A stretch of 61,588 bases of DNA, the filler included, from Sphacelaria rigidula (lineage: Eukaryota), in NCBI GenBank assembly GCA_964200075.2. It is 7 parts of 7 records of this genome, joined end to end, with 100 filler letters (N's around TTAATTAATTAA, not from the genome) between each part and the next. Parts side by side here need not be neighbours in the genome. Positions count along the whole stretch, not along the records: positions 17,628 to 26,340 come from CAXNAA020010296.1; positions 26,441 to 35,153 come from CAXNAA020010297.1; 5 more parts are not named here. One strand, written 5' to 3'. Each line of letters opens with the position of its first letter. The first letter of the stretch is position 1. A model generated the notes under the pieces. It worked only from the letters and a program-made list of their open reading frames with translations, did not search any database and was not told the origin of the DNA. Made by a program: the position numbers and the translations under genes. Positions 1 to 60,669 of the stretch are shown one piece after another.

Positions 1-48
1 GTCAAATGACTTAAGGCAAGCAACAAATGAGTACGCCCCCCCCCCCCC
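1..48 (+). mobile_element. 3' tip of RTEX-like LINE family A followed by oligo(C)
   Basis: GTCAAATGACTTAAGGCAAGCAACAAATGAGTACG then a C-run. Matches the 3' end of the long LINE copy at 47826-49507. Confidence 0.85.
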
Positions 49-8814: not shown

Positions 8815-8883
8815 TCGCGTGGGCCTCTCTCCTTACTCTGATAGCCTCTTTCACTTCCTCATCCCACCATTTTACTGCTGCTG
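8815..8883 (-). mobile_element. 5' junction of a longer LINE copy cut by the contig end (AAVKWWDEEVKEAIRVRREAHA)
   Basis: WWDEE motif typical of the LINE ORF2 endonuclease-RT linker. Starts right after a C-run on the minus strand. Confidence 0.65.
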
Positions 8884-11115: not shown

Positions 11116-11520
11116 TAACAGCTGATCATGGAAATTGAGGATGAGAACCCGGAAAATTGTAATCTTATCCACACCAAACCTTCGAAATATGGTCCCATCC
11201 CTTGATCTACTGGTGGCTATTGACAACTGGTACACTCCCTTCAAATCTGGATTTCGATAACCGAAATGTTGGGGTCCAATTTTGGGGAATTTCTGTCATC
11301 CGATCGCATGGCCGAGATACCCCAAAATTGGTTCTTCACTGAGGACCCCAACATTTCGGTTGTCGAAATCCAAATTTTGTTGGGCGTGTAACAGGTGTCG
11401 AAAGCTACCCGTAGGTCAAGGGATAGGGCCATATTTTGAAGATTTAATGTGGATACGAAGATTTTAGTCCTCCGAGTTCTCCATGAGAAGCCCCATCCTG
11501 AATATCGATGATCGGCTGTT
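11116..11520. mobile_element. Palindromic MITE (about 405 bp) inserted in the RTE 5' region
   Basis: Ends AACAGCTGATCAT / ATGATCGGCTGTT. Arms complementary along their length (GGATTTCGATAACCGAAATGTTGGGGTCC / GGACCCCAACATTTCGGTTGTCGAAATCC). Confidence 0.85.
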
Positions 11521-17732: not shown

Positions 17733-17772
17733 TCAATGGTCAAACGACTAAGGCGAGAAACGAATGAGTACG
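17733..17772 (+). mobile_element. LINE family A 3' tip between C-rich tracts
   Basis: TCAATGGTCAAACGACTAAGGCGAGAAACGAATGAGTACG. Confidence 0.8.
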
Positions 17773-19203: not shown

Positions 19204-22200
19204 TCAAATAGCTGCCGATGAAGACGATCCACCCTCACTGCCCCCGGATCCCGCTCTGGGTCCCGAGGCATGGCGCGCTCTCCCTCTGGAGCGAACGACG
19301 TGCGGCATAGTGACAGCACGCCCGCTGTTGGTGGGGCTCGAGCTAGGAGTGGAGATCACGCCCTGGGGCCCTCTTGTCTGCCACGTACGCGATTGGGTGG
19401 GGGTGAGGGCGCGCGAGGCATGATTGATATTGACTGATCAAGTGCGGCAAGATACGGATGTGTTTCACAGGATTGCCCGTCCACGAAAGGGAGGTGCGCA
19501 TCGAACGGTGCACGAGGTCATGCCTTGGATTATGGCGTCAACTAAAAGCAACACTCCCCACCCCCCGGGTCTGTTCGCGTCATCGATTCCTCCGACCGCC
19601 AAGCACTCCGAGATTCGTGATCCCACGACCATGGGGAAGTAATTTGATACCTCAACATTTTTGAGCGTTGATGGCCGTACTCCCATCCACTCGGTTCCCA
19701 CCGGCTAAACGTTTGACCAAAAAACGTGCAATTGCACCACTGTGTGTATCAGCCCTTATACAGGGACTCTCCTACCGTATACATCTCAAACTCTTCGAGG
19801 CCGAAGGGTTGAAGTTTTCAGACGCGCGCTCTACTTTTTGTCCCGCGTGAAAAAAATACGTGAAAATTGAGCGGTAATGCAAATCACGAAGTCGCTGTCA
19901 CGAATATATATATATATATATATATACAGGGAGTACGCTTCAGTACACACCTGACCCCCCTCTCCCCCCCCGTCCAGACCATCAGCGTTCGATCCTTGAC
20001 TTGTCATCACATTTGGGTTACCCGTGTCCATCATATCCTCCTCCTCAAACGGACTCTGTGCAGACGGTGGGGGAAGCGAGGGGGGGAGGGGGGGGGTCGA
20101 ATATTTTATTATGGTGTTATATGTTGTGTTTCTCAGCGGAACCATTTTCTGAGACATCTGCGGCGCTTCGGGAAACCACCACATCTCGACGTACCCCTCA
20201 ACCGAATATAAAGAAGAGCGTGCGACAGATGACACGTTCTCAAGCGTCAAGCGTTTATCCGAAAGCAAGAGTGGACGTCATCTATCAAATGCAGTACTCT
20301 TTTTTGTCTTCTGTAATTCTCGACGGCAACTACAAGTGACTAAAGCTGACCAGCGCGGAGAAGTGCTGAATAATCGACGAGGAATCGACGAGAATCATCA
20401 CCCGGACAAGAAAAAGCTGAACACGCCAACACTACGGTTTCTAGACTGCTGGTATGCTAGCGCGGCGAACCAGCACAAAGGTTAAGTACTCATTTGGAGG
20501 TAGGAAGAGAGTGGCAGAGTTTCGAACTACGGGTATACCCAATCGTCTGAACGCTCAATCGAAAGGTGTCGTCGAGTTTTCCTACGGCTATTCCACTCTA
20601 CGAATCATAGCGCACTGGAGTGAACAGAAACGGAGCGTGAGTTTCTCGCGTCCCAATCGAACAACACAGCGATTCTACGCCGCTTCTAAAGTGCTGAGGA
20701 AGCGCGCGAGCAAAACGATTTCCCACATGACATCGCCTGAAAAACACCGATCACGAGAGGCATAGCACAAGACACCTGCACCTGCTGGTTCAACGCGACA
20801 AGAAACATTCGGGTTCGGACCGAATAAGACCCCCTTCCCGCGAGACTCGCGCATCACACTGACACTTACACAAAACACCACAATTGTGAATACGCAATGC
20901 AGCTGTTGCGCTCATGAAAATACGCGTGGCGCACCTGGGTAGCGTTGGTGCCCGACTCGTTGTCGGAGTTTTCGTCGTCAGTGTTCACTGGGCTCACGAA
21001 CACCCTGATGACACTTCTATCCTTCACAGGCTGCACATGCAAATAGAAGTAAGGAAAAGAAGCAGTCCGTCCACAACGGGACACGGCCGGGCGCTTTGCG
21101 TCATAGATCAACACCGACACCAGAGGGTTGGCATTACCCCGCGTGCAGTAGGGGGGACGAGGAGAAACGGTGTTCATCCTGAGGTACAACAGATGCTACA
21201 GGCTGGTTCAAGTTCATCCCAAGATTGTGCCATCAGCAAATGCCTTCAGCAATACCTACCCAAAAGCCACACTTATGGTATCATACTGATCGCAATGAAC
21301 AGACCAAGAGGGTGGCAAAGCCGGATTTTAGTCCAAGGCCATAGTGGGAACGTTAAGGGCAAAAAGGTACCTCGACCAATTAGCGCCCTTCAAACTGTTC
21401 TGACATTGAAGCACCAATTCTCAACCCAATTTCCACCCAATCTCTACATGCTTTGGATTGTAGTGATCGCTCTCAGCACGGGGATCCAACAGAAACGCAT
21501 ATTTAGAAACGGCTACTATGGGATCGGGCGATACCCCAAACTGTGGCATTTCAGCGATGTGGGGGTATTGACGTCGTTAGATTTTCGCTGTTCGCTGATA
21601 CCACGGAAGAGTTCCGTTATATTTGTCGTAGAAAAGCTCAGATCGCCCTCAAACTTGGTGATTCCGTAGGTCTTGGTGCTCCAAATGGGAAAAAACAGAA
21701 AGGTAGACAATTTCTCAATGTTTCTCCGTTCTGTAACGGCTTCCGGGGGTCCCGCATGAAGACGCCTGGAAGACGGTACCGAATGCCTCAAAAAAAAAAT
21801 GAGCCTACGATTGTGTATCCAAAGAAGTCGAAGGAACATATGTACACAGCTTGGTTGCGAAACTCGAAGACATCATACAGTTTTTCTCCACATACCCGAA
21901 AAATACGTCTTCATATTAAAACCAAGTACTTGAGAGTTTGCAGGATTCAAGCTAGCTCACTTCATCGCGAACTTCACGCCGTTTCTAGGAGTTAGACCAT
22001 AAAAAATTGCAAACACGTACTACTCGGATGGGCCATTACAAAACTTTCGATGGATGAGTTTTTACTTCTTGACTTTTTGATTTTTCACCGGTTCTCGGGG
22101 ATCCCACGGAGTCCAAGGGCCCCGAGAAGAGGTCCTCGACAACACTGGAACTTCCGAAAATCCATAAAAAGACGAAAGTGCAAAAACCTCGTTCATCGAA

Positions 22201-24796
22201 ATTCTTGTAATGACCCGTAACACATTCGTGCAACTTGTCAGGATTTAGCTCCTAGAAACGGCGTGAAAGTTTGCAGACGAATGTTTCTAGGGTGATACCG
22301 CCGGATTTTATGGCACACAGATTTTTGGCCCACGGGTTGTTCACTTTTGGGACGTTTGACTCACCTTTCGACCCCCAAACAGGGAAAACCGCCAACACAC
22401 GTCTCGGACATTTTTTGCATCACCCCACAAAAAGCCTCGTCTATTTTTCAGATTTGCTTGGCTCCGAGGTTTCGAGATTGGCCGCCGAACAAAAACTGGT
22501 GCGCAAAAATCTGTGCTTGCCGACCCCCGCCAGTTTGCTTGCCAGTTTGAGCGAACTGGCGGGGGTCGGCAAGCACAGATTTTTGCGCACCAGTTTTTGT
22601 TCTGCGGCCAATCTCGAAACCTCGGAGCCAAGCAAATCCGAAAAGCATACTAGGCTCCTTTTGGGGGGGTGATGCAAAGTGTCCGAGACGTATGTTGGCG
22701 GTTTTCCCTGTTTGAGGGTCAAAAGGAGAGTCATACGTCCCAAAAGTGAACAATCCGTGTGCCGTAACATGCGGTTTAACCATGAACCAGCCTGTACACG
22801 GATATACACAGATGGCACGGCTCATCCCCTAACCCCAGCGTCACGATTGAGCTGTGCTGCCAGGTGATTCTTTCATATCCCCCCCCCCTTCCCCCCTCAT
22901 CCTGTGAAATGCACAGAAGAAACGTAACGAGTCTCAAAATGCTGGAGGTACTTTCATCAAGAGTAGGAACAGTGCTCCATCTCGAGAGGTGTGCATGGTC
23001 AATGGTCATGTAATCACGGCAAGCAACAAATGAGAATGCCTGTCCCACACCCCCACACCCCCTCCCACCCCCCGCTCCCGATACGTAATGACCAGCCCCC
23101 AAGTATCGCACGGTGCGATCTTTTAACGGGAGATTTGAACTTCGCTCTACACCCGGCGCCTTAACCTTGCATTACAATGTCTGTCAAACCCTGAGCTCTG
23201 AACTCACCCCACTTGGCACCGGCAGCCATTTGAGGTTGGCCAAAGCTCCCTCGGTCACAGCCTTGCCGACAACCTGAACCTTCGTTTCGGCCTGGTAGCA
23301 GGGTACATATTCCTGAGGTGCTCTCGGGACAACCTCACACAGATACCATACCCTGCTGCTGGGATCCAAATACTGGTGTGTCAAGCATTTCCCCGCCGGC
23401 AACCAGGCAAAATATGCGCGAGTGCCGCACACAGATGGTACACGGAAACGGAGGAAGCGATAAATGGAAAAGATGAGCGAATAAACCGAGAAGTAAACAT
23501 GGGAAAATACTCGACCGACAAGGACGGGGAGGAAAGGGGGCGATGCCCGTTTGGGTATTTTTCCGCAGGTTTACAACAAACATTTCTCGCGGTCGGTCAA
23601 AATTTTCAGAGGTATGAGTGACTTATGAAACCACAGTAACCTGGAGGTCGTAATCCTGGGTAACATCCCGACATCTCGCTGTGGAGCATAGCTTCATCCA
23701 CACCGAATACACGGAAAGGTACGCCACTGATGGGCGCTGTGCCTCGGGGGAAAAGCCGACCATGGAGACGAACAACAGGTACATGGCATCGACGGAGCAG
23801 CGGCCACAAACTCACGAACCCACAACAATGACCCAGCAACACCCACAAAACAGTGATGCCATAAACTGTCTTGTACCTGCGTAGTAATATCACGTGGACT
23901 CGGCGAATGTCATGTATCACGTATCAACCGCAAAAACTACGTGACGGTCCACGAGAAAACTGATGCAACCCTGAACAAACCGCAACATGTTTAAAAACGA
24001 ACCCTATCTTTACGGAACTCTTCTTCTCCTATATATTTTTCCGCACACAAGCCCGACCACTCAAACCCGTAGTCACAGACTTGGACTTGCGCCTTCCGAG
24101 GACCGTCAATGCTATTCCTCACATGAGTTAGAAGCTATATGTTTTTTTCGCATCTTCTGAGACTCTAAAACAAAGCACAAACAGAGGGGGGGGGGACGTC
24201 GAAAAATCAAAGGAGACAAGACCTGCCCTTGACGTGTTGGTCGGGTGTGACAAAATGAACAGATGAGACCCGCCAGTAAATCGACACAACAGATCCGTAA
24301 CTCACGATTACGTAGCCGTGATATTGGTGACGATAGAACTCCACCCCGTCGTCGTGCGTTTTTCGATGGTAGCGCCCGTTCATTAAAGGGTTTCCCGCAC
24401 CCTCCACTCGCAAGTCGTGCGATACCCCACTGTTTCCACCACGGCGGTTTTTCACATCCGCGCCGGCGCGAGCAAGGTCATCGAGCACACAGTCGATCGT
24501 CGCACAAATATTCACGTGTTAGCGCAAGGTCAGACAGAGATAGTTTCCAAGTAATGCCTCCATCCTGTCCTCCCCGATGATTTTGATGACTCGGGAACAT
24601 GACACACTTGTGTTCACGGGTCGCCTCTTACCACCAACGAACGCAACAAACAGCGACCTCAAAAACAAGCTTTCACGCTGTCTCCATGCACCTGTTGTCA
24701 CTGTCTTCCCCAGAGTCTTGCGGATGCTGGTTGCTCTGCCGAGCGCTGCCCCCTCCTCCACCTCGATGCTGCGTGCCTCCACTCCCGCCCCTAGCT
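19204..24796 (-). CDS. 3' part of a spliced gene of unknown function; exons 24796-24692, 23352-23208 (or 23372-23208), 21030-20935, 20055-19951, 19377-19204 (stop)
   Basis: AG/GT-bounded exons with compatible phases: …RVWYLCEVVPRAPQEYVPCYQAETKVQVVGKAVTEGALANLKWLPVPSG / PVKDRSVIRVFVSPVNTDDENSDNESGTNATQ / SPFEEEDMMD…GGQ / TRGPQ…SSAAI*. Confidence 0.6.
22327..22763. mobile_element. Near-perfect foldback element (arms about 215 bp, tiny loop), intronic
   Basis: AAAAACTGGTGCGCAAAAATCTGTGCTTGCCGACCCCCGCCAGTT is mirrored exactly across the centre near 22545. Confidence 0.92.
22890..23038 (+). mobile_element. Diverged LINE family A 3' fragment flanked by C-rich tracts
   Basis: GAGTAGGAACAGTGCTCCATCTCGAGAGGTGTGCATGGTCAATGGTCA...GCAAGCAACAAATGAG. 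Confidence 0.75.
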
Positions 24797-26467
24797 CTAG
24801 AGTTTCGGTCCGGAAACATATTTTGCGCGTCGGCGCTATTCTGTGGACAAAAAACGTTTGCGATAAAAAGTATTGCACATTGACTTCAAGTCGTGTTTTA
24901 TAATCGCGACACGGACACCAACGGTCACCATCCACGTTACGGACGGCAACGGTATAGGAAAACACGCTGCGGCAAACTTCACTGTCATGTTCCATTACTT
25001 TGTTTCGATCATCATACGAGCTGGGCCAGCCGTACAACGCAGGACCCGTGAGCACATCACAACTTCAGCAGCTTCCCGAATCAGCCCGATTTATGCATAT
25101 CGCAGTGAACTGCAGACTTACCTGGTAACATAGAGCTCCGCCGCTGCTCTATTGGCGCAGTTTTGATGATCACATTATTTTACTGTATCAAGGACCAGGT
25201 ACGTCTCATATCGTGGTGTGATGGTGTTCTCTGAGGAGGGGAGGGGGGGAGGGGGGTTATGTAAAATGCGGCAAAATGACTTATGACGACTTTGACATGC
25301 CGAGTAAAGAGTGCACTGGGAATGCTTGCGGGATGGCATCAAACTCATCAGCAGCTCTGTCATGGGGGAGGACATCCCAGCCGCTTGTCACATATAACGA
25401 GCACAGGAAAAAGTATCCAACTCGGACTGGGCTGCAACGCCTTTCGTCAATCCAATCCTCGATTGTGATCGTTCTTCCTCACAGTTGAGAAGAAAAAAAA
25501 ACTGCCAGATTTTGAGGAAAAAATGGTTTTGTGGGGATTCAAACTCGTAACGCATGTAATTGGCGACTCCTTCACCAGTTGGTCCCCCGAGGTGCAGCGA
25601 TGTCCAACAAAAATTTCCACGCGCGGCCCAATTTCACGACTTTTGAGCCAAGGTTTCACCAGGATCTTCTGTGCGCAAGTGAAAGATTCGTGTTGCGACA
25701 TGGGGCCGTTTTTGGTTTCTTCACAGAGTTACGTCATATTTTAGTTCTTCGTAACAATTTCGAATCGCCCTCATTTTCCTTCCTTTCATTTTTTCTTCGT
25801 ATCCCGCACTGTGTTTCGCATCTTGATGAAAATGTCGCCAAAATTTCAGCGCCCAACTCGTCAAATTCAGCCACGCATCACATATTTTGCCGAAAAAACA
25901 GGTATGTTGGCGGGCCCAGCTTGTACACATTTTCAACTATTAAATAGCCCATAACGAGAACGATGTTTTGGACATCGGTTTGTCATGTATATTTCGAACG
26001 CGATTTTGATTAGTATTGATTTTCTCGACATGATCCATTACGGCTAATTATGGTTTTCATGGCAGACGATCACCGTACGTTCACCAGTTTCCATTTTACC
26101 CGGTCGTGACGAAAGATGAGAGCGACGCAAACCGCACAAGACTCTCGAAAACGAAATACTCGTGTTCGAAATTAAACAAGAAGAAACACCACTTCTCTCA
26201 TTCGTGGATTTTTATATTCGGTGACCTTCTGGTTTCTACTCGCAAACATGCACGGTTAGGACAAATCAGAATTCATACGAGTCGACTCGCCATGACGCGC
26301 AAGCAGTCATGCTGTAGAAGCCGCTGGTCCCGCTGGGTCGNNNNNNNNNNNNNNNNNNNNNNNNNNNNNNNNNNNNNNNNNNNNTTAATTAATTAANNNN
26401 NNNNNNNNNNNNNNNNNNNNNNNNNNNNNNNNNNNNNNNNACGCCCCCCCCCCCCCCCCCCCAAAGT

Positions 26468-26537
26468 ATGCTCCGTCTCGAAAGGGGGGCGCGGTCAATG
26501 GTCAAACGACTAAGGCAAGCAACAAAAAATGAGTACG
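26468..26537 (+). mobile_element. LINE family A 3' tip with (C)n-AAAGT target-site duplication, inserted in a MITE
   Basis: C19-AAAGT at 26444-26467 and C13-AAAGT at 26538-26555. Confidence 0.85.
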
Positions 26538-28330
26538 CCCCCCCCCCCCCAAAGTGCCTGGTTGGAGGAGGTGAAATCCTCACGTAAATCGAAATGGAAA
26601 AAGCCGAGTACAACGAGCAGCTGGGATTTCCCACGCTCGGGTTCGTTCTCGCCAATGTCGCCCATAATATGAGGCGCTTCATGCAGCCTGAACCCCAACA
26701 CCGGGCGCTGTATGACTATTTTTTTATTAACATTTCGGGCTGGTTTTGGGGGGGCTATCGTAGAAAGTGTCCCAGGGTGTGATTTTTACAGAGTAGTATC
26801 GGCCCGCTATCACTCGAAAGCAGGCTCAGCTTGGCTGTTTTCTTCTATGCGAAAGGAGAAACAACACCGTCTTGTACTGTATAAACGACACTCAGGCAGT
26901 GCCCAGCCTGCAGACGTCAGAATTCCCAAAATATTTTTCAACCCCCCAGATTAATCATTCGAAATGCAGCGAGAGATACCAGGCGTCACACAGCAGGAAC
27001 TACAATAATGTTCACACCAAAACAAGGAAGCATGACTCAACCCTTTGGCCGTCAGGGCGGGTGATCTCGTAGATCTAGTTTCCCTGTTTAGGAAGCGAAT
27101 AGTTTACCCATTGAACCTGAACATTCCCCCCCCTTGAAGCATGAGCGTAAACCCCAAGTGACCCACATTCCGATCGTCAAAGGGTTCAAGCGGCTGAAAC
27201 AACAAAGTCGGGTCGGACCCAGAGTATCACAACGAAAACTCAGATGTATTCTGGATACGGCAACTAGTATAGCATTCGGTTAATAGTGTCTGAAAGCACA
27301 ATGACGGAGTTGCTCGGTAAGCTGTAAGCACTCTTAACTCTTAGGCTACGAATCCCCCGGAGATGGACTGAGATGGACTACAGTATGCTACCCTTGGGGT
27401 TCAGAACGGCTGTTTTCTCGCTACACGAAACGCCCTTTGTTATGAACATGTGGATTTTGGGCATCTATAGAGAAAACAGTCCCAGAGAACCACTGACTGT
27501 GTTTTATCCTGCAGTCAAGTACATGCGGAGTCAGTATATGTATGATATGCTGTATGTCTTCGCTGGGTACAACGGCAAGAGAGTCAGCGTTGGCTCGCCA
27601 TTGAACACAGTCTACTGCACGCTTCTGATGTCTCTGCCTAGTGTTGTACAACAACACTACAGGCAGTGTGAAGCTGTTCTGGCAACACAGAGCGGTCAGA
27701 CAAGCGGCAAAGACCACGAACAAGGCAAGAAGCGCGTTGCTTGTTTCCCTAATATTTATGAATGAATGGTCATGGCTAACATATTTATAGGGCTAGACGG
27801 CGAGGTGGTCTATCTGGAGTCCATCTGTAGGGGGAAAAGTGACCATTCTGATCAATCACAACTCTCAAAATTGCCACTCCGCTCCTCTCGGGCCTTGTTC
27901 CTGGCTTCCAGATACACATGATTGACTCACGAGCTTTTCGGTTGTTTTGCGAGCAGGCCCGTACCTCCCTCTCGAAAACCACCACCCCCCGGCCCCTGGA
28001 AACCCCCTGATGTCCCTTGGCTGTCAGCCTGTGAAAGTGTCCGAGGCGACACTCGCGGTCTAAGGGTTGACCGGTCTTACAGCGGAGTTTTTTTCTCCCC
28101 TGTTCCTCAGGTTATCTGTCCCGTACCTTATGTACACACAACACAATGATTTCCATCGGTCAGGGGTACATATTATTAGTACTGCACCATCATTACCAAC
28201 TAACGAGCTGAGTTGAATATATCTCTGCGCGCTTGGGCATGGATGGAGGGCGATAGCACCAGAAGAACGCTGAAATCCGTAAAATATTGCCTTGGAGTGA
28301 GTGTCCGCCATAAGAAAATTCAGTAGCAAC

Positions 28331-28574
28331 GCTACGGTAGGGGTGCGCTTTTTGCGCAGAATCTTGTCTGGTTCAGGGGCTCCTAACGATTAGAGATGCA
28401 CAAGAATGTGGGTCGGGGCATCCCCGTTTGCAAATTCATTCGGGATATCCTTAGCACATTGGAATATCAAAACTGGCGCATTCTCACAAATTTCATACGC
28501 TGTGTTCCGGATGAGATGAAGGGCTCCGAACAATTCTAACCTCAGAGAATATTTGGACACCCTTCCGTAGCATC
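28331..28574. mobile_element. MITE with TIR (GAT)GCTACGGTAGG; inverted copies at about 34044-34293 and 42927-43174
   Basis: Shared core TCTGGTTCAGGGGCTCCTA...GATGCACAAGAAT.TGGGTC.GGGCATC.CCGTTTGCAA.TTCATTCGGGAT. Confidence 0.85.
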
Positions 28575-29004
28575 CCTGTCAGGGAGGGGGATCGGGGGAA
28601 TTCAAACGGTAAGTACGGTTAACCCTTAGACCGCGAGGATAGTCTATCTGGATCAGGCATACTTTTTCCAAGTGAAATTGATGCTGATCCCACATATGAC
28701 CTACTCTCGCTGTCTAAGAGTGACACAAGAAGAACCCGGACATCAGACGAAATACATTTGCTGCAAGTTTGGCGGGTTCTATACCAGGATCAGGGCACCC
28801 GCCCGCATAGCACTCGTCATCATGAAGTGGGAACAGCAGCTGCGGTAGTGTCCGTTGTCTACAGCTACGTACTGTCTGTTCTACCCTAACCTGTGTTGAC
28901 ATGTACTACACAACGCTGCCTTCACTTCTTTTCTGTATGTATGTGCCGTACAGCACAGTATCTTGCCGCCGTTCCTGCAAGAAAAGTATGTCCGAGTATC
29001 GGTA

Positions 29005-29263
29005 GGGGACACTTTCTACGATAGCCCCCTCCCAAAAAGTGCATGGTTTTGGGAGGCAAAATCTTTACGCAAGTCGAAATGGGAAAAGCCGAGCACAACG
29101 AGAAGCTGAGAATTCCCACGCTTGGGTTCGTTCTAGCTAATGTCGCCAAAATGAGGCGCTTCATGCAGCCTGAACCCAACCATCAGACGCTGTATGGCCA
29201 TTTTTTTCGTGACACTTTTGAGCTGGTTTTGGGGGGGGGGGGGGGGCTATCATAGAAAGAGTC
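29005..29263. mobile_element. MITE with TIR GACACTTTCTACGATAGCCCC; relatives at 26538-26773, 29355-29696, 41545-41776 (-), 43895-43965 (-)
   Basis: TIR pair plus shared core AAAAGCCGAG.ACAACGAG.AGCTG...ATGAGGCGCTTCATGCAGCCTGAACCC. Confidence 0.8.
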
Positions 29264-30810
29264 AGGGATAGCCGGGACCGCACTCAATGCGGTGTCAGCC
29301 GGTGCGGCAACAGCCCGTGGTTCAACGGGCGCAACAATCGGGGCAAGAAAGATGCCGCGATAGCCCCTAAAGAAAAATGGTGGCAGGTTTGAGGACGCAA
29401 ACCTACATGAGAATCAAATGATGAATAAAAACCGAGCACACCGAGCAGCTGGAACTCCCAAGATTGGCATCGTTTTCGCCAACACCGCCTATATGAGGCG
29501 GTTCATGCAGCATGAAGTCAGCTATACGATGTATCTTGGCTGCTGCATGGCCATTTTTTTCGTGACAGTCTTGGGGCTAGGTTGGGGGCAGGGGGTGGGG
29601 AGTGTTGTACGAATGATTTTGCATACCGTAGTCATTTTGACTATGAGAGCAGAGGGGCGGGCGGCGGCGGCGGCGGGGGGGGGGGCGCTATCGCGGGATC
29701 ACTCAGAACAACCTCTAGGGTAGAACCCGGGGCTGCAGCCGCTGCGGTAACATTTTCCTCGAATGTACCCTCTAAATCTGAGATGAGAATCTCAAGTGCT
29801 GCTGCATGTGGTCATCAATATCTATCGAGGACACCACTTCCGTGCGACATCGGCTGTTGTTGCCATCTATCTCTGAAACGGTTTCAGCCCGCACATTCAT
29901 GTCAACACATACGCGGTACGGTCGGCGATACACCGACCAGTACAGTATGCACCAAGAAATTTACAAGTGCTTCGTGTGGGCCTTACCTATGTTACAGTAC
30001 GGGTGCCGCCACTCTGATGCTCGATCGAGCAGCGGCCCTTACCTTGTCATTTGGTCCACACGTAGAAGATGACTCCTCGGTTTGGTACAATCTAGAATCG
30101 GCGTTTTTTGCTTCAACAGCTTGCTCTGTGATATATCTATATATCCATCACCTGTTTCTGCGCTGTGGTGGAAAGTGGAATGCGAACCCCTTCGAGACAT
30201 AGCTGCGAATGTTTTCTATAGGGTTATACCAGTAATGGCGTGCTTTTGTGCCCCAAGAGACCTACAGACTCATCCACGTTGTGATTCACCGGGGGTGGAA
30301 CAACACTGTGCGGACTACTACGAGTATGTGACAACAACTATGTTGGACGTTTTGCCGTTGTTTCTTCAAACAGGTCTTCTCGATTCTGAAACCCTTTGCT
30401 GTTCTGTGCGTTGACTCTGCCTCTCTATTGTTTCTATGTTTATGCTTGTGTGTCTACTGTGGGAAGTGAACACTCTACAAAGTGCTACACACAGCCAGCG
30501 GTCAGTCGTCACTTACAGAGCTGTCGCTGTCTCATTGGTGCGTTCGTTGTGCCGCACTTCAGAAGTATTCAGCCAATCAGATTATGCCAAGCGAAAAATA
30601 GCCCGAATTTGCGACACATGATTCAGCCGTTCTGTCGTGCTTTCTCCTTCTCTCCCTTTCCTGCTCGCTCTCCTCCCCCTTTTATTCATTCTACAAGCAC
30701 CACAGTAACCGCTCGGATATAACAAGGCATCTACCCACTCCTCTCCATTCAACAAGCACTCCCCACTCACTGTACATTCGAGTTTGATTCGGGCACCTTC
30801 TGCGACAACC

Positions 30811-33920: not shown

Positions 33921-34889
33921 GTGAGGAATACATCACTAGCTGCACTACGCCGGGATTGCGGCGCTCCTTTTCGTTGTTGTACCGCTGACTACAAGTGCAT
34001 TCTAAGATGCGTGTTATGGCGCCGTTCACTTCAAGCAACGAGTGATGCTACGGTAGGGATGCACACATATTTTCTGAGGTTAGAGTTGTTGGGAGCCCTC
34101 TACCTCATCCAAAATATGACTTTTGAAATATGTGAGATTACGCCAGGATTACTATTCTAATATGCTGGGGATATCCCGAATGAATTTGCAAACGGGGATG
34201 CCCCGACCCACATTCTTGTGCATCTAGGAGCCCTAGGAGCCCTAGGAGCCCCTGAACCAGACAAGATTTCGCGCAAAAAGTGCACTGTAGCATTGCTCCA
34301 ACGTCTGCTTAGGAGCAGCATGATCGCCATCAGAACGATCACTTGCGAGTATCCATCGCCTGTTCAGCTACGCGTGACTCTATATTGTAGCGGTTCTTTT
34401 CGTATTTCCTCAACGTTCCTGTATCGACAACTGCAGCAACGAGTGCGCTATGCTTTTATGCCCAGGTGCTTATTTGTCCCGCTTGCGGCTCGTCACTCCG
34501 CTCGTCGCTGGCTTATTACTGATCGGTACCAAGACGTGGAGATAAAAATTAAGGAGGATGACGCACAAGCGCCAGTCAGTCAGCCATTGAATCAGTCGAT
34601 CGGTCGGTTTTTCACATTTCAAGCAGAAAGTACAGCTACTCCGTTCGGCCAACTACCACTGTTAGTCGCATGATTGAATGGTGATCGATTAATTGTCGCA
34701 CATCAGATGTCGAATGTACAGAAAAAACACAGAGTATCATTGTTGCTGTTGAAAAACGCTAAGTATGTGACGTCCGGGGTGTAACGTCTGAGGCAATCAG
34801 AATAGCCTTCGGCTAATCAGCTAGCGTTGTACAAGCATGATTGCCCAACATGCAGGAATGTGATACCTTCCTCTTAGATCCCTCTCCGC

Positions 34890-35034
34890 CTATAGGAATG
34901 CGAAGTCAATGATCGCATGACTGTGACACACAAGATCTTGAGTACACCCCCCCTCTATTAGGAGTAGGAACAGTGCTCCGTCTCGAAAGGGATGCGTGGT
35001 CAATGGTCAACCGACTAAGGCCGGCAACAAATGA
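34890..35034 (+). mobile_element. Tandem LINE tips: family B end, C-run, then family A end
   Basis: GGAATGCGAAGTCAATGATCGCATGACTG...GAGTACA-CCCCCCC-TCT-ATTAGGAGTAGGAACAGTGCTCCGTCTCGAAAGGGATGCG. Confidence 0.75.
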
Positions 35035-44065: not shown

Positions 44066-44256
44066 GGGTACTCTTTTGTTGCTGGCCTTCGTCGTTTGAC
44101 CATTGACCACGCATCCCTTTCGAGACGGAGAGGGAGGTGGAGGGGGGGGGTGTACTCATGGTCTTGCATGCCGTAGTCATATGACCATGGACCTCGCATC
44201 CCTGCAAAGCCGGGACAGAGCACGCCGGGTTTCCGCCGGTCCAGGCGAGCAATCAA
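44066..44256 (-). mobile_element. Tandem LINE tips: family B end (44256-44151), C-run, family A end (44130-44066)
   Basis: Minus strand GGATGCGAGGTCCATGGTCATATGACTACGGCATGCAAGACCATGAGTACA-(C)n-…CTCCGTCTCGAAAGGGATGCGTGGTCAATGG. Confidence 0.8.
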
Positions 44257-44792
44257 TCGCCGGGCGCGGAGCGCCGACCGAGCGGAGAGGGAGGAGGGGA
44301 TGACTATTGTAATACAACATCGCGCGCGGAGCTCAAGATAGAAGCTGCCCGCTCGTTGTAGGGAACAACTTGTTCGTCGTTAAAACATACAGAAGTAGTC
44401 CGGTGCGTAACGCCTTGGAGTTTTACTGGCGGGCACGTTGTCTTCCCGCACAAGGTCTCCCCTGACTTGGCCAATCCCTCTCCCACGAGACGGCCACTTG
44501 AACCCGCTAGGCCGTTCCCCTTTTTATCCTACCTAAGCCTTATTCTTCAGAGGAGATGATATATGTACTTGACCATCTGCCGTGCAAACCAGCGCGCACG
44601 GTTTCTTTTGCTCTTGATTGATCACTTCGGGGGAAGGCATTCCGAGTCTGCTGCTCTGTCACGCGCGTAGTCATCACGACTGAATGTTTGCTGGTATTGT
44701 GACTCAGCATCATATTGTACCACAAAACGTTAACGCCTGACTCGTGCAGTAATGAATCTAAAATATTGATTGTTTATTTTTAGCCAGTCGTG

Positions 44793-45020: not shown

Positions 45021-48000
45021 GTGGTGGGACAGTTCCGTGAACGTGGGGCTGACCTGGACGATGTACTGCAGCACGTCAACACCCTCAACAAGTCCAACAG
45101 AAAGGATGACTATGTGAGCACTACCAACTGCTGCAAGGTAGCTGTATCTTTGAAATACGTAGCGTACTATCCAGCGTCTAGAAGCTGGGAGCGTGCATGC
45201 GCTGATGTGTGTGCAGCCACAACAGGTCTAACAGAAAAAAAAGGATGGCTACACTGCAACGTAGGGCGTATTTTTCTGTGGCACGAGGATCTTTTTTGGC
45301 ACCTGGAGACCTGGAGGTATGCAAGATGTGCATTAACGGTGATGGCCAGTTCTGTTATGCCGTGAAAGCTTGACCTCGTGAAATTCGCGAATGCAGTGTG
45401 TGTTAGTCGGCTAATCACGGACTTGTTTTGCATGCAGAATAATTGCAAGAGTTCAGCGATCTCTCTTTGTTTGTTGTTGCAGCACCAAAATATTCATTCT
45501 GAACATAAAGCTGCCCGACTATTAGACGACGTGCTCCGGTGAGGCAGATGGTTGCACGTAGAAGTACATGGCGAAAAACAATGTCGGTGTGAGGAAGTAT
45601 CTGCGCTCAAGCCAACTCTAATTGGAGCCGTTCAAAATTCCTGTTGGAAACTGGCTTTTGTGTCCTTCTCCGTCGATTTACGCCCGAAAAGGGGGCTAGG
45701 CGGATGTTGACGCCTTGGAATAACTTCCTCTACTCGTCGAGACCGTTCCAGGGCAACTTTGCCTTTCCCGCTGGCCGCACCCTTGTGTTCGGCCAAACCA
45801 GGTCGAACACGGAGTTTCAGTAAGAAACGGGCAGGTGATCAAAATTTCCCCCTGTTTTTGATAGCTTGACTGTTTCTTATTGAAAATCCGTGAGTGACCG
45901 AAAATGAAAGTGCAGCCAGCCGGAAATGCAAAGTTGCCCTGGAATGATCTCAGTGAGTAGAGCAAGTCATTCCAAGGCGTCAACATCCGCCTAGCCCTCT
46001 TTTCAGGCGTAAATCGACGGAGAAGGACCCAAAAGGCAGTTTCCAACTGGAATTTTGAACGGGCCCCATTGGGGTTGGCCTCAAGGAAAAAAAACCTGTC
46101 CCACAGAGATGCCCTATCATGGGCTTGGAAATCGATTTCAAGCATCTGCCAGTTAGCAGTTGACCGTGCCCGCTAAAGCCTGAAGCGAGCTTTCGTCTCG
46201 CTTGTAAACTCCACGAAAGAAAACAATTCCCTTAAGGGCTCAAGTTCAACCCTGTCTCTCAGATAATATTGTTCTCGTTGATGCTAACCCTACGTCCCAC
46301 GGCGACTTTCTGACTGTCAGCTGCTTCACCCTGACAAAGCCTAACCCCGCCGAGTTGCACTGTTTCGTTTCTTCCGTTGATATCAGAAACCTTTCGTTTC
46401 TCGAGAAGCACTCAAGGGAGATGCGCGCACGGCAGGAGGCATGACTGCTCAGCATCTGTACCCTGTTTACGACAGACTGGTACGTGCTGACGTATTTTCT
46501 TTTTTCGTGAATTCTTGCATGTGTCGCCGTTGCGAACGGGGCCGGTTGGCCATGTACAAGCCGATCAACCCTACAATAACCGAGTGATGAACCCGACCAA
46601 CCGAACGAGGCAGTTCGATAGAATCCGGTCGTTGTTTAGGGTGCCGCCCCGCAGAATTATCATGTGTAGGGTATGTAATGCAATGTATAGTTGTCAACAT
46701 TTGAACTTTTTTTTTTAATCGAAAACGATATTTTGAAAAACAAATTCGGTTACCAAGACTCGTCATGGTTACTGTCCCATCTCAAACTCTGAGAATCAAA
46801 ATATTTGAGTGTCCGACACCGATTCCCCCCCAAAGTACTGTACATGTAGGTCTTTTTTACGACCAACTTTTTGAACGTGTTAACGGCTGACCGATCATCG
46901 GGAACCCTACGAGTGTACGCCCCCTGGTTCTCGCTCTCTGATATTTTCTCTCAGCCGAGCCGATCCGAATCATTATCATGTACAGTTCTTCGGATTTTTT
47001 TTTTGTAGAATCTGCAAAGAAAGCGTGTTTTTGGACAGTGCACAGTCAGTAACCCCACCTCGACGAACAGGGCTCTACTCCATGTTCCAACAACACAAAA
47101 TTGGGAAATGTGTCCCGAGGACGGCCTGCTTATCTTTCCAGCGCCTACCGACTCTCAAACGTTCTAGTGAAGATGACGAGTCGTATGCGAAAGCTCCGAT
47201 TGAATGAGTCAATGTTTTGAGCGTTGACCGCTGTAAGGGCGCGCAGTAATTTTTCTGGCGCCCACTAGTTTTTTTCAAGGCCGTTTCTTTGGTGCCTTGA
47301 TTTATACTCGAGTTTTTTCTGGCGAGTTTTTTCCAATACTAACCGCGGGTACGCCCATGTCGCACCGACAGTTGAGTTCGTGGCGGGTGTTTGCAGGAGG
47401 CGTTCAATCTACCAAGTACGTTGCAGAGTCACTAGACAACCCCTCTCGAGTGGGAGTTATTTTCGACGTCAGTTTTCTCCACAGGGAAGACCCCGTCAAG
47501 CTGGAGATAATCCTTTGCGTAGGCAGATATTCGCTGTATCTTCTCCCACGGCAAGAAGTTTCGACACATCCAGCGTCCTACTTTTGAAGTTCCGGCCACT
47601 TGTTTTTCTGAAGAGGGGTGTGTTTGCAATTCGTTACTTAAGGAAGGAAAATCGTAAATTTCAACAAAGAAGCGCTGAACATTGGCAGCGTCATTACTAC
47701 CCTATGGGTGGCGACGAAGAGTGATAATGGACAATGACGAATGATGGTGCTGCCCGCTGTCCCATAACTGAGGGAGGGTAGATGCCATGAAGGCGATGGG
47801 TGTAACACCTCCGAGGGGGGAGTGCGCGTACTCATTCGTTGCTTGCCTTAGTCGTTTGACCATTGACCACGCATCCCCCTCGAGACGGAGCACCGTTTCT
47901 ACTCCTAATGGAAACAGCCTCCAACATTTAGGTGCTCTCTATATTTCTTCCATACATGACTGTACACAAAAACCTTTGACATATCTTATCCCTGTCCTGT

Positions 48001-51000
48001 TTCGCATTCTATGGCCACCATGTGTATCCTAGTAGTATAGCCAAATTTTTCTCCCTACTGTTTAATGCATCAAACGATTTCATTTCACCTTCGTTCACTT
48101 TCCGAACTTTCCCCTCTGGCCCGTCCCATTCCTCCTTGTATAGTTCACATCCTGCCTCTGTATGAGTTCTGCTCTCTACTTCTTTGCCACAGGGGGCAAA
48201 TCTGTCCATGTACTTCCTCCTCCACACGACGACTGGTATACTTTCTTCTCCACCCGAAATCGCAGTTTCAATTTTTTCTCGCGGCGTCTATTGGGCCATG
48301 CAGATATGTTTCCATCCCTATCCCCTCCCTCAACCCCCGTATATCTTCAGGTGTTTTCCCTCATCTAATTGGGGTCTGAGGTTATATTTCCCCCTCATTT
48401 CTATCATGTCTCTCACTATCGTCTTGTACTCCCAACCTTCACCAATGTAGAGTATTTCGTCTTGGTTTCCTCCTATCTCCTTCCATACTTTCTCGACAAC
48501 CCTATCCCACCTTATTCTAACCTGCCCTTTCGTCATTTTCTTCCATACAGCCCTATCAACTATGACTGGCAATCTCTTTCTCTGCATGTTCTTGACGCTG
48601 TATTGACATCGCAATTTTCTCATGTCTCTGATTGTTTTAAGTGGGTACATTCCCAACTCTGTTCTCAATGCTGCATAGCTACGTTCCCCTCCCACACTTT
48701 TCCTGCATATTCCAGTTTTGATACAATCACGTTCATTGGGATACATCTTTCAATCCTAGCATCTAGGTGCGAGTCGCTGGGGATCACGTCCATCCTGCTT
48801 ATCTGTGACTGACCCTTTTCGATTACTTTATTCATGTGTACATCCCGAGAACAGTTTCTCGAGATCTCTACGGCAAGGTATGTGTATTGGTCTACAATGC
48901 GCAGTTCATCTTTTCCCCACTTCCATTTGAACTTTACTCGATTTTCCTTATCCTCGTTCCATACGAGTACCGCGCGTTTGTTTACGTTGGCTTTCACTCT
49001 CTATTTCTTAGTGTATTCTAGCGCCTCCTCTACTACTAACTTCAATCCTTCTAGTATTTCTGATATCTCCACGAAACCGTCCGCGAACATCAACCTGATA
49101 CCATGTCTGCCCCCACCTTGATTCCTTCCTTTGCTTCTTCTATTGCTATTATCAGGCCATTATTATTTCTCCGAATAAAGTGCGTGATGACGTACATCCT
49201 TGTAAGAATCCTTGTAAAATATAAAAATCTTTCGATATTCCCCCGTTTAGCATCATCACACTCGTGGCACACTCTGTTATCTTCTTCATCATTCTCCACA
49301 TCTCTCCTCTGATGCCAGTTTCCCACATCTTTTCCCGCAGCCCATGTCTCCGTACCGTGTCACAGGCCTTTTGTACGTCCAGAAAAAAACAGTACATTGC
49401 CAGCCCGGTGTCTTTCCTACCTTGAATAATCTTACCTAGTGTGTACACATGGTCTACGCAACCACGGTCTGGTCTAACACCTGCTTGCCCGTCACTGATG
49501 CCTACGAGGGGGGGGCGGGGGGAGCGCGTTTCCAGTATGTTGGTTGTATTGAAGAGATGAAGTCTGCACTCCCAGAAGGTACCGTTAGTTCCTTCGACAT
49601 GATCTCCACCAGGTATTTCGGCTTCATCCCATGTTGTGGTGCCAGCTATCGTGAACAGTATGTCTGGTGCTCGGGAAGTCGCAGCAGCATTTGCACACTT
49701 GTTTTTTGTGTCACTGGCGAATACCGCACGAGTTTTGTCCTGTGCGTAGTACGCGAAGTTGTTGATGGTATCTGGTGCTCAGCATCCACGGTATCCATGC
49801 GCTATTTTTGTTGCTGCCTAACGAAACGGTACATGGTTATGCCGCACAAGTGAACACTGTACAAATCAGCGGAAAGCAACGGTATCTACCTCAGGTCTCC
49901 GAGAGCTGATGGTGAGGCTGTTTGCACTCCTACGTAGCGGTATGGAGTTATCTATGGCAAAAGGTTTTGCAAGCAGCAGTACTGTATTGTTTCTCGCTAC
50001 CTCGTTGGCGTGCGACTGAAAAGGGTACACTGAAAAGGGTACTCCATTCCAACTTCAAAGATGGCATTTTCCTGTTATCCCATATACTCTGGTGCAGAAC
50101 GGATTTATGAGGCCACAGATGTTTCTAGCCGTGGTACGTGCACCGCAACTGGAACTACGTGATATGTGGAGGTTGGTCCCAAGAGTCACCCCCCTCCCCC
50201 TCCCCCTAGGGATGCGTGGTCAATGGTCAAACGACTAAGGCAAGCAACAAATGAGTACGCCCCCCTGCCCCCCCCCTCCCCCCATTCCCCCCGGGTACTG
50301 GAGTATGGAGGCGTCATTTTGAAGAAATTAACGGGTAGTGCCGGCGAGTACTGGGCAGTACAGCACTGGGCATAGAATAAACCCGGTATGTACCGGAAAG
50401 ATGCCAGGTAGACCGAGTATCGGGTTCGCGCCGGTACTGCGGGTACTCTACATGAAGGCGAATAGTGACCCCCTTCTGGCAGAACGTGAATCACGCGGCC
50501 GTGTCCTTACGGCCTGTTCGAGATCCAGTCTTACACGGATGAATCATTGTATAGGTTCACCGTTCACCTCCCTTGCAACATGAGTCACTGGAAGATGGAG
50601 TAAATTAAGATTGATGAAGGCGCGCTTGAGATGCGGGTCAGCGACTTATTCAGTGTCTAAAAATGGTGTCTGGAAAAAGTCACTGCCCGAACAGTTGATT
50701 GTTTTCGGATTATAAGAAGCGGTCTCCAGAAGATTGATGATGATGATGGTGGTGGTGATTATATTTAGTTGAAATAATAGAAAATAACAATTAGCAATGT
50801 GAATGATGACAATACTAATAACGAAAAAAAAGTATAAAAACATGGGAACAATGACCATAGTGATATTGATGTAATATCAGTCATGACAGTAGTAACAAAT
50901 ATCAAAAACAACAGTAACGACAACCGCAATAACAGTGATGATGACTGATAATGATCAAAATCAACACATCAATACCCAACAGAAAAAAAATGTGTACCTA

Positions 51001-52707: not shown

Positions 52708-52777
52708 CGTGCTCCGTCTCGAAAGGGATGCGTGGTCAATGGTCAAATGACTAAGGCAAGCAACAAATGAGTACGCC
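52708..52777 (+). mobile_element. LINE family A 3' tip at contig end, preceded by a C-run
   Basis: GTGCTCCGTCTCGAAAGGGATGCGTGGTCAATGGTCAAATGACTAAGGCAAGCAACAAATGAGTACGCC. Confidence 0.88.
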
Positions 52778-53389: not shown

Positions 53390-56300
53390 CTCCATCGCCG
53401 CGTATTGAACCAGCATGTTTGCGCCCGCCTTGCTGGCCGAGTACACCCCCGCGGTTTTGAACTTGGCGGTTGCCCTGATACCCGTCGCAGAGGTGTTCAC
53501 GATAATGGATCCCTTGTCTCCTGACTTAGCCATAGCAGGGATCTGCGTACATAACGCAAAGGAATCGCATTTACAAAAAAAGGGAAAGCAGTAGGGCATG
53601 TTGCACGATAGAAAAATTGATGGAGAGAGAGTTTTCGCATACTAATTCATTGTTCCATGAACCCAGCCGTCGTGATGGCCGTACCCACGGTACAAAGATC
53701 AAGAAAACCCCCCTGATAGAAACTCATACGAGAAATCGACTTCGGAAGAAAGTAGTTGGCCGAGCTTGTTTGACGAGAGTTGACGCGTTGTGGAAGAAAG
53801 CGCTGACCCAATCCGCGAGACAAGAGTGCAAGGCGTGTACCGGAGGAGGGTGTACACATGATCTTACATGCCATAGTCATAGGATTATTGACCTCGTGCC
53901 CCTACAAAGCAGGGACGGAGCACGCCGGGTTTTCATCGGACCAGGCTTGCAATCAACCACCAAGCGCGAAGCGCTGTGGTGCGGTCGGCGAGTCGCTTAA
54001 AGGGTGAGCTGCATCCTGCCAAGACTGTTCGGTCCGAAGCGTACCGATTATGTTGCATTTGGATGACAGCCTCCAATTTGTTGCTTCATTTTCTGGTATC
54101 GGCACTTCCAGAGACAGCCACGGCCTACATACGGCATCATGGGTGTCTCATCATTTCAACATCACGTAGTATGATCATCCCCTTTGCGCGGAATCGATGT
54201 TGTCCCACCCCGCAAAATATGATCCAGCTCGATCACCATCATGGTTACCGCAGGAGCAAACGCAAGTGCGCAAAATAAATCGGTAACTTGGCTACCTAGC
54301 TTACGGAATGAGTGGTGCTTTTCACGGCGTCATCGCCAACCGACGTCAACCCCACAGGGGATCCGACGCGTGTGTAATGCGTGAGAGAACCGCGTGCTCA
54401 GAGGACCGCACCAGAATTTAAGCACCCCTATGGTTAGGGTTAGGGTTAGGGTTAGCGTTGGGGTTGGGGTTGGGGTCAGGAGCGTATTCCCTGCAGGGAC
54501 TGACCCGATTGGTTTTGAAAAAAGCCGATCCGGAGGTGTTTTGGACGACGGCGCGGTCCTCTAAGCGCGCGGTCCTCTCACGCATCACAGCGTGTACCGA
54601 GGGGGGGGGGTCTACTCATTTGTTGCTTGCCTTGGTCGTTTGACCATTGACCCAAATTAAAGTAGTGGCAAATAGCAAATAACGAATAAAAAGACAAGAC
54701 GAAGGAGAAAGGAAAAATGACCAGAGACTGGAGAACGCATTGAACAGGAAGATACAATACACAAAAAACAAAACATATACACCAGTCGCTCAACCGTCAC
54801 TTAGACTCCAGGCAACCGCGGACAGAACACTCAGGTCTGAGTCATTCTCAGCAAAAGCATAATGCCAGTTCACAACATATCACAAAATATTACCGAGTGG
54901 TCGAAAAAGAGTAAACAACAATGCTCGGCTGTGTTGCACAAAATGTAATTCGTGGGAAGACCGCGTACTTTTTGGACCGGATCGGAAGTTGAACACCCCA
55001 GGATCGACGTCTTTCGAAACCGCTCGGGCAAGTCCCTGCAGCGACCGCGCCCCTGACCCTGACTCTAACCCTAACCCTAACACTAACACTAACCCTAACC
55101 CTGAACCTAACCCTAACCATAGGGGTGTTTGAACTCTTATGTGCTCCAAGTAGCACGCGATCCTTCCACGCATTACATAGGCGTAAGGTGCCAGGTTCAC
55201 ACCTGGTATGTCCCAGAAATGCAGAACCTTGTCTCCATCCTATGATGCCCATACCTGGTACTTGAAGCAGAAGATGAGAGACTTGAGGTTGATGTCCAGA
55301 AGGGAAGTCGCCATTTCATCCGTCATCTCGGCGAACGAAGTAGCCTGGAATATGCCGTGGTTGTTGAACGCCACGTGCAGGCCGCCGTAGGTAGACACGG
55401 TCATGTCCACCATGTTCTTGCAGTCGGCTTCCTGCTCCAGCAACGACAAGAAAGCAATTACAAGAGAATAAACAGCAAGAAACTACACAGGAGACCAAAG
55501 AACGCAGTGCTTCAATGGGAATATATATGTGATCTTCGTATTCCTCGGGGACCCCAAAACGCTACTACTGCTGTACACTATTTCGTACCTTGGAAGCATC
55601 GCCGGCCACAACGAGAGCTTCGCCCCCGGCAGCCTTGATCTCATCAGCTACCAGCTTCAGCTTTTCTTCAGTCCTAGAGACTAGAACCACCTGAAGGGGG
55701 AGCACATACGAAGCAAATCAAACACAGCAAAGCACGTGAGAGTTTACTTCACCATGCGAGTATGTCGAGAATAAAAGTATGGCTGAAATATACGTTTGAT
55801 GTTAGTACAGTCATGATGGCAGGCTAGACGCCTGAGATTGAGACCCTTCTTCATGGCGCCGCGCCCGAGTTAGTCTTTACCGGTGTAATGCGTGAGGGGA
55901 CCGCGTGGTTAGAGGACCGCATCGGAAATTCAACATTCCTACGGTTAGGCTTAGGGTTAGGCTTAGGGGCGTTGTACCTGCAGGGGCTGGCCCGATTGGT
56001 TTCGAAACACGTCGATCCTGAGGTGTTTTTAACTACGGCGCGGTCCTCTACGCACGCGGCCCTCTCACGTATTGCACCGGTACATTTCGAGACTGATCGG
56101 TCCTCTGGATTTTTAGGAACGTTTTTAAAGGCGAAATACTCCAGGGTAGGCAGGATATCTATAACGCGTGGGAGAACTGAGAAGCAGCTCGGTGCATCGG
56201 TGACGATTACACCCTTTTCTTCATCGTCTCTCCATTATCATTCACCACATCACCTCACACCGTAAGCCATGTAGACTCACATGAAACCGATATAAAACAT

Positions 56301-59879: not shown

Positions 59880-60640
59880 ATACGGGAGAGGAGAGCGTGA
59901 AGATGGTGAAGAAGTTGGGAACAGTACTTGGATGCTCGCAAACGACGAGTAATACAGCATTGAGAGCAGAGTTGGGAATACACTCACTTGAAACTAACAG
60001 AGACATGAGGAAATGATGTGGCAATATAGCGTAAAGAAAATGCAGAGAAAGAGATCGATGATAGCTGTAAATAGTTGATGAGGCTTTATGGAAGAAACCA
60101 CGAAAGAGCGGCCTGGAATAAGGTGGGATAGAGAAGTGGAGAGAGTATGGAAGGAGATAGGAGGGAACCAAGACGAAATACTGTCCATAGATGAAGGCGC
60201 GGGGTGCAAGGCAAATGTAAGAGACATGATGGAAATGAGAGGAAAATGAGCGCCCAGACGCAAGTAGACGAGGAAGAACACCTGAAGATGTGCGGGGGGT
60301 TGAGAGAGAGGATATAGGGGTGGACATATATTCGCATGGCCCAATGGACGCGGCGAGAAAATTGAAACTGCGATTTCGGGTGGGGCACCTGGACCTGCCA
60401 GAAAAAAAAAAGATATTTACCAGTTGTCGAGGGGAGGAGGAAGTAGATGCACAGAATTGCCCCCGTTGTGGCAAATCAATAGAGAACAAAACTCATACAA
60501 CGGCAGAATGTTAACTGTACAAGGAGGAACGGGACGTGCTAAAAGGGGAAATGCGGGGCGTGAACGAAGGTGGCATGAACTCGTTTGATGCATTAGACGG
60601 TAGCGAAAAAGCGATGGCTATACTGTAATTGGAGGTAGAT
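59880..60640 (+). mobile_element. RTEX-like LINE family A fragment (C-terminal region), starting after a C-rich tract
   Basis: NTALRAELG, GPMDAARKLKLRFRVGHLDL, CPRCGKSIENKTHTTAEC. Homologous to 48030-48700. Confidence 0.88.
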
Positions 60641-60669
60641 GGTGTAAGTCACGTGGGACAAGCGCGAAC

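Follow-up and report, generated by a model that had tools for sequence, protein, structure and literature searches.

Cytosine-rich insertion sites are already on record for long interspersed nuclear elements (LINEs) of the brown alga Ectocarpus. In the Ectocarpus sp. 7 transposable element (TE) library of Dinatale et al. (2025; PMC12477816, Supplementary Material 3), the target-site duplication (TSD) is given as 'C-rich' in all six RTE-X rows; RTEX-1a_Ec32 is listed with a 'single EN-RT ORF; (C)n 3'', that is, one open reading frame (ORF) holding endonuclease (EN) and reverse transcriptase (RT), and RTEX-2_Ec32 with '(C)n termini/TSD'. According to the same library, RTEX-1/-2_Ec32 are 5.5-5.9 kb long and are the most abundant LINE group in Ectocarpus, RTEX-N1/N2_Ec32 are their non-autonomous partners, and RTEX-N1 is about 600 bp, shares a 60-bp 3' end (83%) and can occur in tandem, while the remaining curated LINEs of Ec32 have (CAA)n or (CA)n 3' ends (PMC12477816). 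The term 'C-rich' occurs zero times in the main text available for that article and stands in table notes, which draw no line between tail and target. In Saccharina, too, an RTEX-1 has been named (PMC4421812). Here we analyze a 61,588-nt stretch of the Sphacelaria rigidula genome assembly GCA_964200075.2 (the window, 61.6 kb, made of seven record parts joined by 100-base gaps), with emphasis on a 70-bp insert at 26468-26537 that lies between two runs of C, and compare its family with these and other retroelements.

In human L1, the TSD begins on its left with the homopolymer, which is contiguous with the 3' end of the element. The Sphacelaria family resembles L1 in this arrangement and in its protein, which joins an apurinic/apyrimidinic endonuclease (APE) to an RT, but L1 has an A/T target and a long poly(A) tail, whereas here the target is C/G and there is no long tail. 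LINEs as well as short interspersed nuclear elements of the RTE clade likewise have a homopolymer near the cut and a TSD start tied to the 3' repeat of the RNA; in those elements, however, a T-stretch lies some 10 nt upstream of the TSD and the tails are microsatellites (Nishiyama and Ohshima 2018, PMC6007223), whereas in Sphacelaria the TSD itself contains the homopolymer. RTEX elements of green algae carry the same clade name and likewise lack poly(A), but those tabulated end in (CA)n, (CAA)n, (CCAT)n, (ACAATG)n or (CTTGTAA)n rather than in a C homopolymer (Ohshima 2013, PMC3747384, Table 3). Targeted insertion at (C)n repeats has been described for the Chlamys Penelope-like elements (PLEs), which use a GIY-YIG endonuclease, a PLE-type RT and pseudo-long terminal repeats instead of an APE endonuclease and a LINE RT (Craig et al. 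2021, PMC8557442).

Results

The 70-bp insert is a LINE 3' end between two C-runs

The 70-bp piece is the 3' end of an APE-type LINE. As the original prediction had described it, the piece lies between C19-AAAGT and C13-AAAGT (26444-26555), and an exact 18-nt direct repeat, C13-AAAGT, flanks it (Table 1). It encodes the last 18 residues of the LINE ORF (tblastn match to residues 1342-1359 of the relative P0004, 83%) and is 90% identical over 70 nt to the full-length relative L003. Just five bases come after the stop codon, giving the ending TGA-GTACG, and the predicted lack of an A-tail or microsatellite beyond it held in 8/8 readable window 3' flanks and 4/4 loci outside the window. At the 5' junction, target and LINE share the microhomology GTGC, with one or two extra bases.

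The insert had been placed inside a miniature inverted-repeat transposable element (MITE), and on the right this is what we found: the MITE remainder at 26540-26771 and an uninterrupted MITE at 29025-29263 share 79.8% identity over 242 nt. On the left, the gap at 26341-26440 stops three bases before C19, so the left arm and left junction of the host MITE are out of view. Those three bases are ACG, although GATAG precedes the C-run in the three other aligned MITE copies. Judged from three bases, ACG is probably the end of an earlier insertion, and the 70-bp piece therefore probably landed as a stacked second insertion behind another LINE end located in the gap. The empty site said to be visible is, in the same way, half there: the second MITE has a single C-run at the corresponding place, but at 79.8% identity it is a paralogue and not an allele.

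Family members adjoin C-runs on one strand

Twelve pieces of this LINE lie in the window, ten with a 3' end and two with a 5' junction only; among the ten, the 5' junctions fall 35 to 1752 nt from the stop codon. The predicted enrichment of C at the junctions was strong. Within 35 nt upstream, on the sense strand, a run of at least six C's was present at 10/11 readable 5' junctions, compared with a background of 2.1% (binomial P ~2e-16, the junctions being taken as independent), and G-runs of at least six at 0/11. Downstream, C-runs of at least six followed in 7/8 readable flanks, two more flanks reaching gaps after two to three C's, and at all four outside loci (L001-L004).

Contigs from four public sequencing runs, representing at most four samples and two studies, gave the same picture. 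Loose ends behind the LINE terminus read TGAGTACG-Cn in 4/4 runs (465, 264, 417 and 119 contigs), loose ends before truncation points had C's in place of the LINE consensus, and in at least 12 tandem joints a C-rich spacer connected one 3' end to another.

For the most part, these C-runs were probably not left by the family itself. A recognizable earlier family end, read by eye, preceded only 3/10 upstream C-runs. Of 71 window tracts of at least six C's, 18 have a family junction no more than 60 nt away and 53 do not, in a tally that does not count the insert at 29606 as a family junction. Six uninterrupted MITE arms in the window carry native C-runs of C4-C16, and within the C-run of a seventh lies a 40-bp 3' end of the non-coding partner family described below (33/40 columns against the copy at 44151, nhmmer E 0.0012), with both junctions readable and GATAG intact; together, these arms provide independent support for targets that existed before insertion. 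Insertion of the LINE at pre-existing C-runs, with strand specificity, is thus supported.

Target duplications include the C-run

A locus-specific TSD whose left end is the C-run was found in three of six testable copies, so the TSDs called for by the original prediction could be assigned in half of the cases. They are C13-AAAGT at the 70-bp insert, C6-TCG(T/G)AGG at the longest copy and C-run-CGGTACACGC at the 520-bp partner element, with 5-11 unique bases to the right of the C-run; the latter two loci are far from gaps. The score of each TSD was matched by 1, 0 and 0, respectively, of 53 other C-tracts. Right and left C-tracts measured C13 versus C19, C6 versus C6-G-C8 and ~9 nt versus C10. 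Since the right tract is no longer than the left in any of these three, no long tail is needed. The duplications show that the C-run is a target, but the wording 'target and not a tail' was too strong: a few templated C's, or a short oligo(C), may still stand at the end of the RNA.

Intact relatives encode a single APE-RT protein

A search with the longest window copy (47827-49499) found nine proteins, one of them from Ectocarpus (72%) and including complete single ORFs of 1328 and 1360 aa. These two (P0003 and P0004) have PF03372 and PF00078 domains and end in ...VVNGQMTKASNK, the peptide encoded by the window stubs. The claim of an APE-type LINE without poly(A) is borne out. Residues 1-1360 of P0004 align to L003 in one piece, as a single APE-RT ORF, whereas the decayed window copy matches residues 777-1360 in four tblastn pieces and is 78-80% identical to L003 in DNA; its RVT_1 match lies at 49152-49520, and the endonuclease part is absent from the window copies. 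In intact relatives the endonuclease precedes an L1/R2-like RT, the APE catalytic residues N173, E203, Y282, D319, N321, D386, D411 and H412 are invariant in 26/26, and the best structural matches of their profile were L1 ORF2p and L1-EN (E 2e-18). The hallmarks of a LINE are present: a common 3' end, varying 5' truncation and TSDs of variable length. L003 extends ~5.0 kb to the 3' end, its own 5' end perhaps cut by the contig; members of its cluster occur on contigs of 5597-5895 nt, which is suggestive only.

In a quick RT tree of 116/124 proteins and two short window fragments, built without clade reference elements, the window fragment fell in a nine-row clade (SH-aLRT support 100) with two sub-lineages, each having Ectocarpus members. 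The Ectocarpus sp. proteins in the family are P0002, P0024, P0025, P0062, P0069 and P0149. No named RTEX reference was among the matches, and the RTE-X label is taken from PMC12477816; a whole-library profile search added further relatives, all unnamed. Several relatives between P0064 and P0103, with RT identity of only 40-53%, still end in C/R-x-VxG a few residues before the stop. The ORF end, which encodes the shared 3' terminus, may double as an RNA recognition signal.

Scans of metagenomes and prokaryote genomes yielded only 3 + 1 loci, which lack a readable 5' flank and are therefore informative on the 3' end only. One record, L004, is a 3-kb piece of the LINE filed under a bacterial metagenome-assembled genome and is most likely host contamination. 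Viral contigs gave no pattern match in one scan and, in another, one pattern stretch with no confirmed relative. None of the listed sequencing runs with the family was an RNA run, and Rfam at gathering score had no match in the window. Among candidate identities, RTE-1/-2_Ec32 and CRE-1_Ec32 were rejected because (CAA)n or (CA)n was seen in none of the 8/8 readable flanks and because the endonuclease precedes the RT, the CRE order being RT-EN. A Chlamys Penelope-like identity was rejected on finding an APE domain and an L1/R2-like RT, not GIY-YIG with a PLE RT.

A non-coding partner shares the 3' end

The last 52 nt of the LINE recur at 80.8% in a non-coding partner family, four ends of which lie in the window. 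Its ~520-bp member (53851-54372), which has a TSD of its own, sits directly behind a LINE 3' end. A short element with terminal inverted repeats (TIRs), at 54373-54589, is nested at the edge of the partner's TSD and has a CACGC duplication on its own flanks; it is one of five such TIR elements with internal telomere-like CCCTAA runs (54373-54589, 55881-56086, 56877-57096, 54944-55184 and 57564-57725). A 3' stem-loop common to the two families is predicted, but its support is weak (-6.5 kcal/mol, two-sided change in 1/11 pairs, 8 sequences) and it is given no weight here. With its terminus shared by the non-coding partner, the 3' end of the family is probably recognized by sequence.

Table 1. 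Features of the C-run LINE family, its partner and the host MITEs in the window
Feature	Positions	Strand	Details
LINE 3' end	1..36	+	followed by C13
5' junction of a longer LINE copy	8815..8878	-	C9 upstream; enters gap; 93.8% over 64 nt to L003
LINE 3' end	17733..17772	+	both sides C-rich
Older LINE 3' end	22900..23038	+	both sides C-rich
100-base gap	26341..26440	.	N44-linker-N44; same pattern at six window places
ACG before C19	26441..26443	+	equals last three bases of LINE terminus (GT-ACG), not MITE GATAG
Left TSD copy, C19-AAAGT	26444..26467	+	C19 26444-26462; AAAGT 26463-26467
70-bp 5'-truncated LINE 3' end	26468..26537	+	TGA 26530-26532; GTACG 26533-26537
Right TSD copy, C13-AAAGT	26538..26555	+	C13 26538-26550; AAAGT 26551-26555; runs into MITE
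Host MITE, visible part	26538..26773	+	right terminal repeat 26750-26773 with its own G7 run
Paralogous MITE without insert	29006..29263	+	proxy empty site C5-T-C3-A5-GTGC at 29025-29042; G16 in other arm
40-bp partner 3' end in C-run of seventh MITE arm	29606..29645	-	GATAG-CG-C11 left, C-rich right
Stacked partner 3' end, C7, LINE 3' end	34894..35034	+	
LINE 3' end stacked after partner 3' end and C9	44068..44130		
Partner 3' part, then C9 and further LINE 3' end (44068-44130)	44151..44274	-	80.8% over 52 nt to L003 3' end
Right TSD of longest copy	47808..47820	-	C6-TCGGAGG
Longest LINE copy, 5'-truncated	47827..49499	-	decayed RT to C-terminus; Pfam RVT_1 E 5.5e-7
Left TSD of longest copy	49501..49513	-	C6-TCGTAGG; 12/13 match to 47808-47820
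LINE 3' end	50208..50259	+	both sides C-rich
LINE 3' end	52709..52775	+	upstream C11; gap downstream
Non-coding ~520-bp partner, LINE-like 3' end	53851..54372	-	TSD C-run + CGGTACACGC at 54590-54610 and 53833-53850
LINE 3' end	54613..54652	-	downstream C10; sole copy without upstream C-run
Internal LINE piece, 3' end lost	59899..60644	+	C-rich 5' junction

Other features of the window

Three of the six 100-base gaps (26341-26440, 43966-44065 and 52778-52877) directly adjoin a family end and a C-run, which suggests that such insertions break the assembly. A second decayed LINE at 8872-11125, on the minus strand, has APE- and RT-like frames 27-33% identical to those of the C-run family and breaks off near 8940, close to the C-run family junction at 8878; we take it to be RTE-like. 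Foldback (self-inverted) elements of 300-480 bp with arms 65-88% identical lie at 22327-22763, 45611-46079, 3618-4068, 11117-11520 and 21973-22267. Tandem arrays of 41/82-bp and 217-bp units occupy 56467-56783, 57095-57411 and 60670-61186, the last coming after the end of the broken LINE piece at 60644. A dispersed repeat of ~250 bp occurs in three copies at 77-81% (28328-28577, 34040-34285 and 42922-43175). Plus-strand open frames of 184-287 codons lie in 36140-37452 and 39361-40224, the first two of which had no Pfam match at E 0.1.

Discussion

By its features, the LINE in this window matches RTEX-1/-2_Ec32: both have a single EN-RT ORF, a (C)n 3' end, a C-rich TSD, a partner sharing the 3' end (60 bp at 83% for RTEX-N1, 52 nt at 80.8% here) and Ectocarpus members. 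No differing feature was shown; what the present analysis does is to quantify strand bias, TSD geometry and stacking. The original prediction did not recognize insertion at C homopolymers as a described specificity and named prior annotation in advance as evidence to the contrary. Such annotation exists in substance in the Ectocarpus library (PMC12477816), where C-rich landing is already entered in the RTE-X rows, and (C)n targeting is on record for Chlamys (PMC8557442), so the claim of novelty fell. Our literature search found no paper on poly-C targeting by LINEs, although it was blind to the spellings 'poly(C)' and '(C)n'. Since the family and its C-rich TSD are already in print, as is (C)n targeting by retroelements of another class, the discovery is modest.

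In target-primed reverse transcription (TPRT), a nick frees a 3'OH that primes copying of the element RNA. We consider it likely that TPRT placed a 5'-truncated brown-algal LINE of the RTE-X type (RTEX-1/-2_Ec32 kind) in the C-run carried by a MITE arm, where an earlier copy most likely already stood in front of it. Because the TSD geometry mirrors the TT/AAAA of L1, the endonuclease would nick the strand rich in G, where the G-run has its 3' edge or close by. The ...GGG-3'OH so exposed would then prime on RNA ending in ...GUACG, probably aided by a few read-through C's, and a second nick would fall 5-11 nt past the C-run. Early termination of copying would leave stubs of 35-140 nt. Each insertion would double the C-run, and later copies and the non-coding partner would therefore pile up there.

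Several observations weigh against this account. The junction at 54652 has no upstream C-run. Three of the six tested copies lack a locus-specific TSD. The permutation result that favours the C-run TSDs (5/720) was obtained with C matches down-weighted, with two copies lacking a C-run on one side dropped and with the partner element added after its TSD had been seen; under ordinary scoring of seven LINE copies, the test was not significant (383/5040). At the 70-bp insert, an orthologous empty allele was not seen, and the locus is spanned by none of the contigs listed for the four public runs.

The last point also bears on the idea that the repeated C-run-AAAGT is a local tandem duplication or an assembly error at a contig edge, not a TSD. 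The locus does begin at a contig edge, and ACG-C13+ recurs there with a 94-nt spacing, but TSDs of the same geometry are seen at two loci that lie far from any gap, the insert derives from a LINE and not from the MITE, and the junction has GTGC microhomology, so we think this explanation unlikely. It is more improbable still that the C-runs are simply a poly(C) tail, upstream runs arising by self-targeting behind earlier copies. That would suit the 3/10 upstream runs that follow a family end, the partner that follows a LINE end, the tandem joints and the '(C)n 3'' of RTEX-1a (PMC12477816). Against it, no recognizable family end precedes the other seven upstream runs (in one or two cases a decayed end may be present), MITE arms bear C-runs natively and one was hit with its GATAG junction intact, and 53/71 tracts of at least six C's are away from any family junction.

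Harder to separate from insertion led by the endonuclease is selection at priming, since the two differ only in which step picks the site. Nicking would be loose, or G-tract breaks would be used, and only primers ending in G would pair with an RNA ending in oligo(C), making the C-run both tail and target. The C13 at the filled site, longer than the C-run of 5/6 uninterrupted MITE arms (C4-C7; the sixth has C16), and the C-rich tracts that are clearly longer on the 3' side in 2/6 copies fit this alternative. So do the correlation of TSD start with the 3' repeat in RTE elements (PMC6007223) and the less defined nicking of L1-EN in vitro than its integration (PMC1950540). On the other side, the 3' tract is not longer than the 5' tract in the three definable TSDs, though two of those 5' runs are 3' flanks left by earlier copies, and C-runs can lengthen without insertion, as in the G16 MITE arm. 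Protein comparison leaves the matter even: a hairpin loop governs target reading in L1-EN (PMC1950540), and the specificity hairpin region, which precedes the SxxD motif, can be aligned to L1-EN with no gap, as loose nicking would have it, so that no special loop length points either way. We regard selection at priming as a serious possibility, if a doubtful one, and place site selection by the nuclease slightly ahead. The corresponding proposal, that the APE of this brown-algal clade reads the dC:dG homopolymer, nicks the G strand at the edge of the run and works with an RNA without a homopolymer tail, as a G/C mirror of L1, is a tentative one; the literature searched held no biochemical demonstration of dC:dG-run recognition by any APE.

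From the table entry 'TSD C-rich' the analysis derives a mechanism that can be tested, for the LINE group that is most abundant in Ectocarpus and whose kin left 12 LINE pieces and 4 partner pieces in the 61.6 kb studied here. With C-run insertions at 3/6 contig gaps, the family may fragment short-read assemblies. Set beside L1-EN, a natural APE with a preference for G/C homopolymer would be of use in finding out how such enzymes read DNA shape. If the APE does read C-runs, each insertion, by duplicating its target, would create further landing sites for the family, and this would account for a quarter of the C-tracts in the window.

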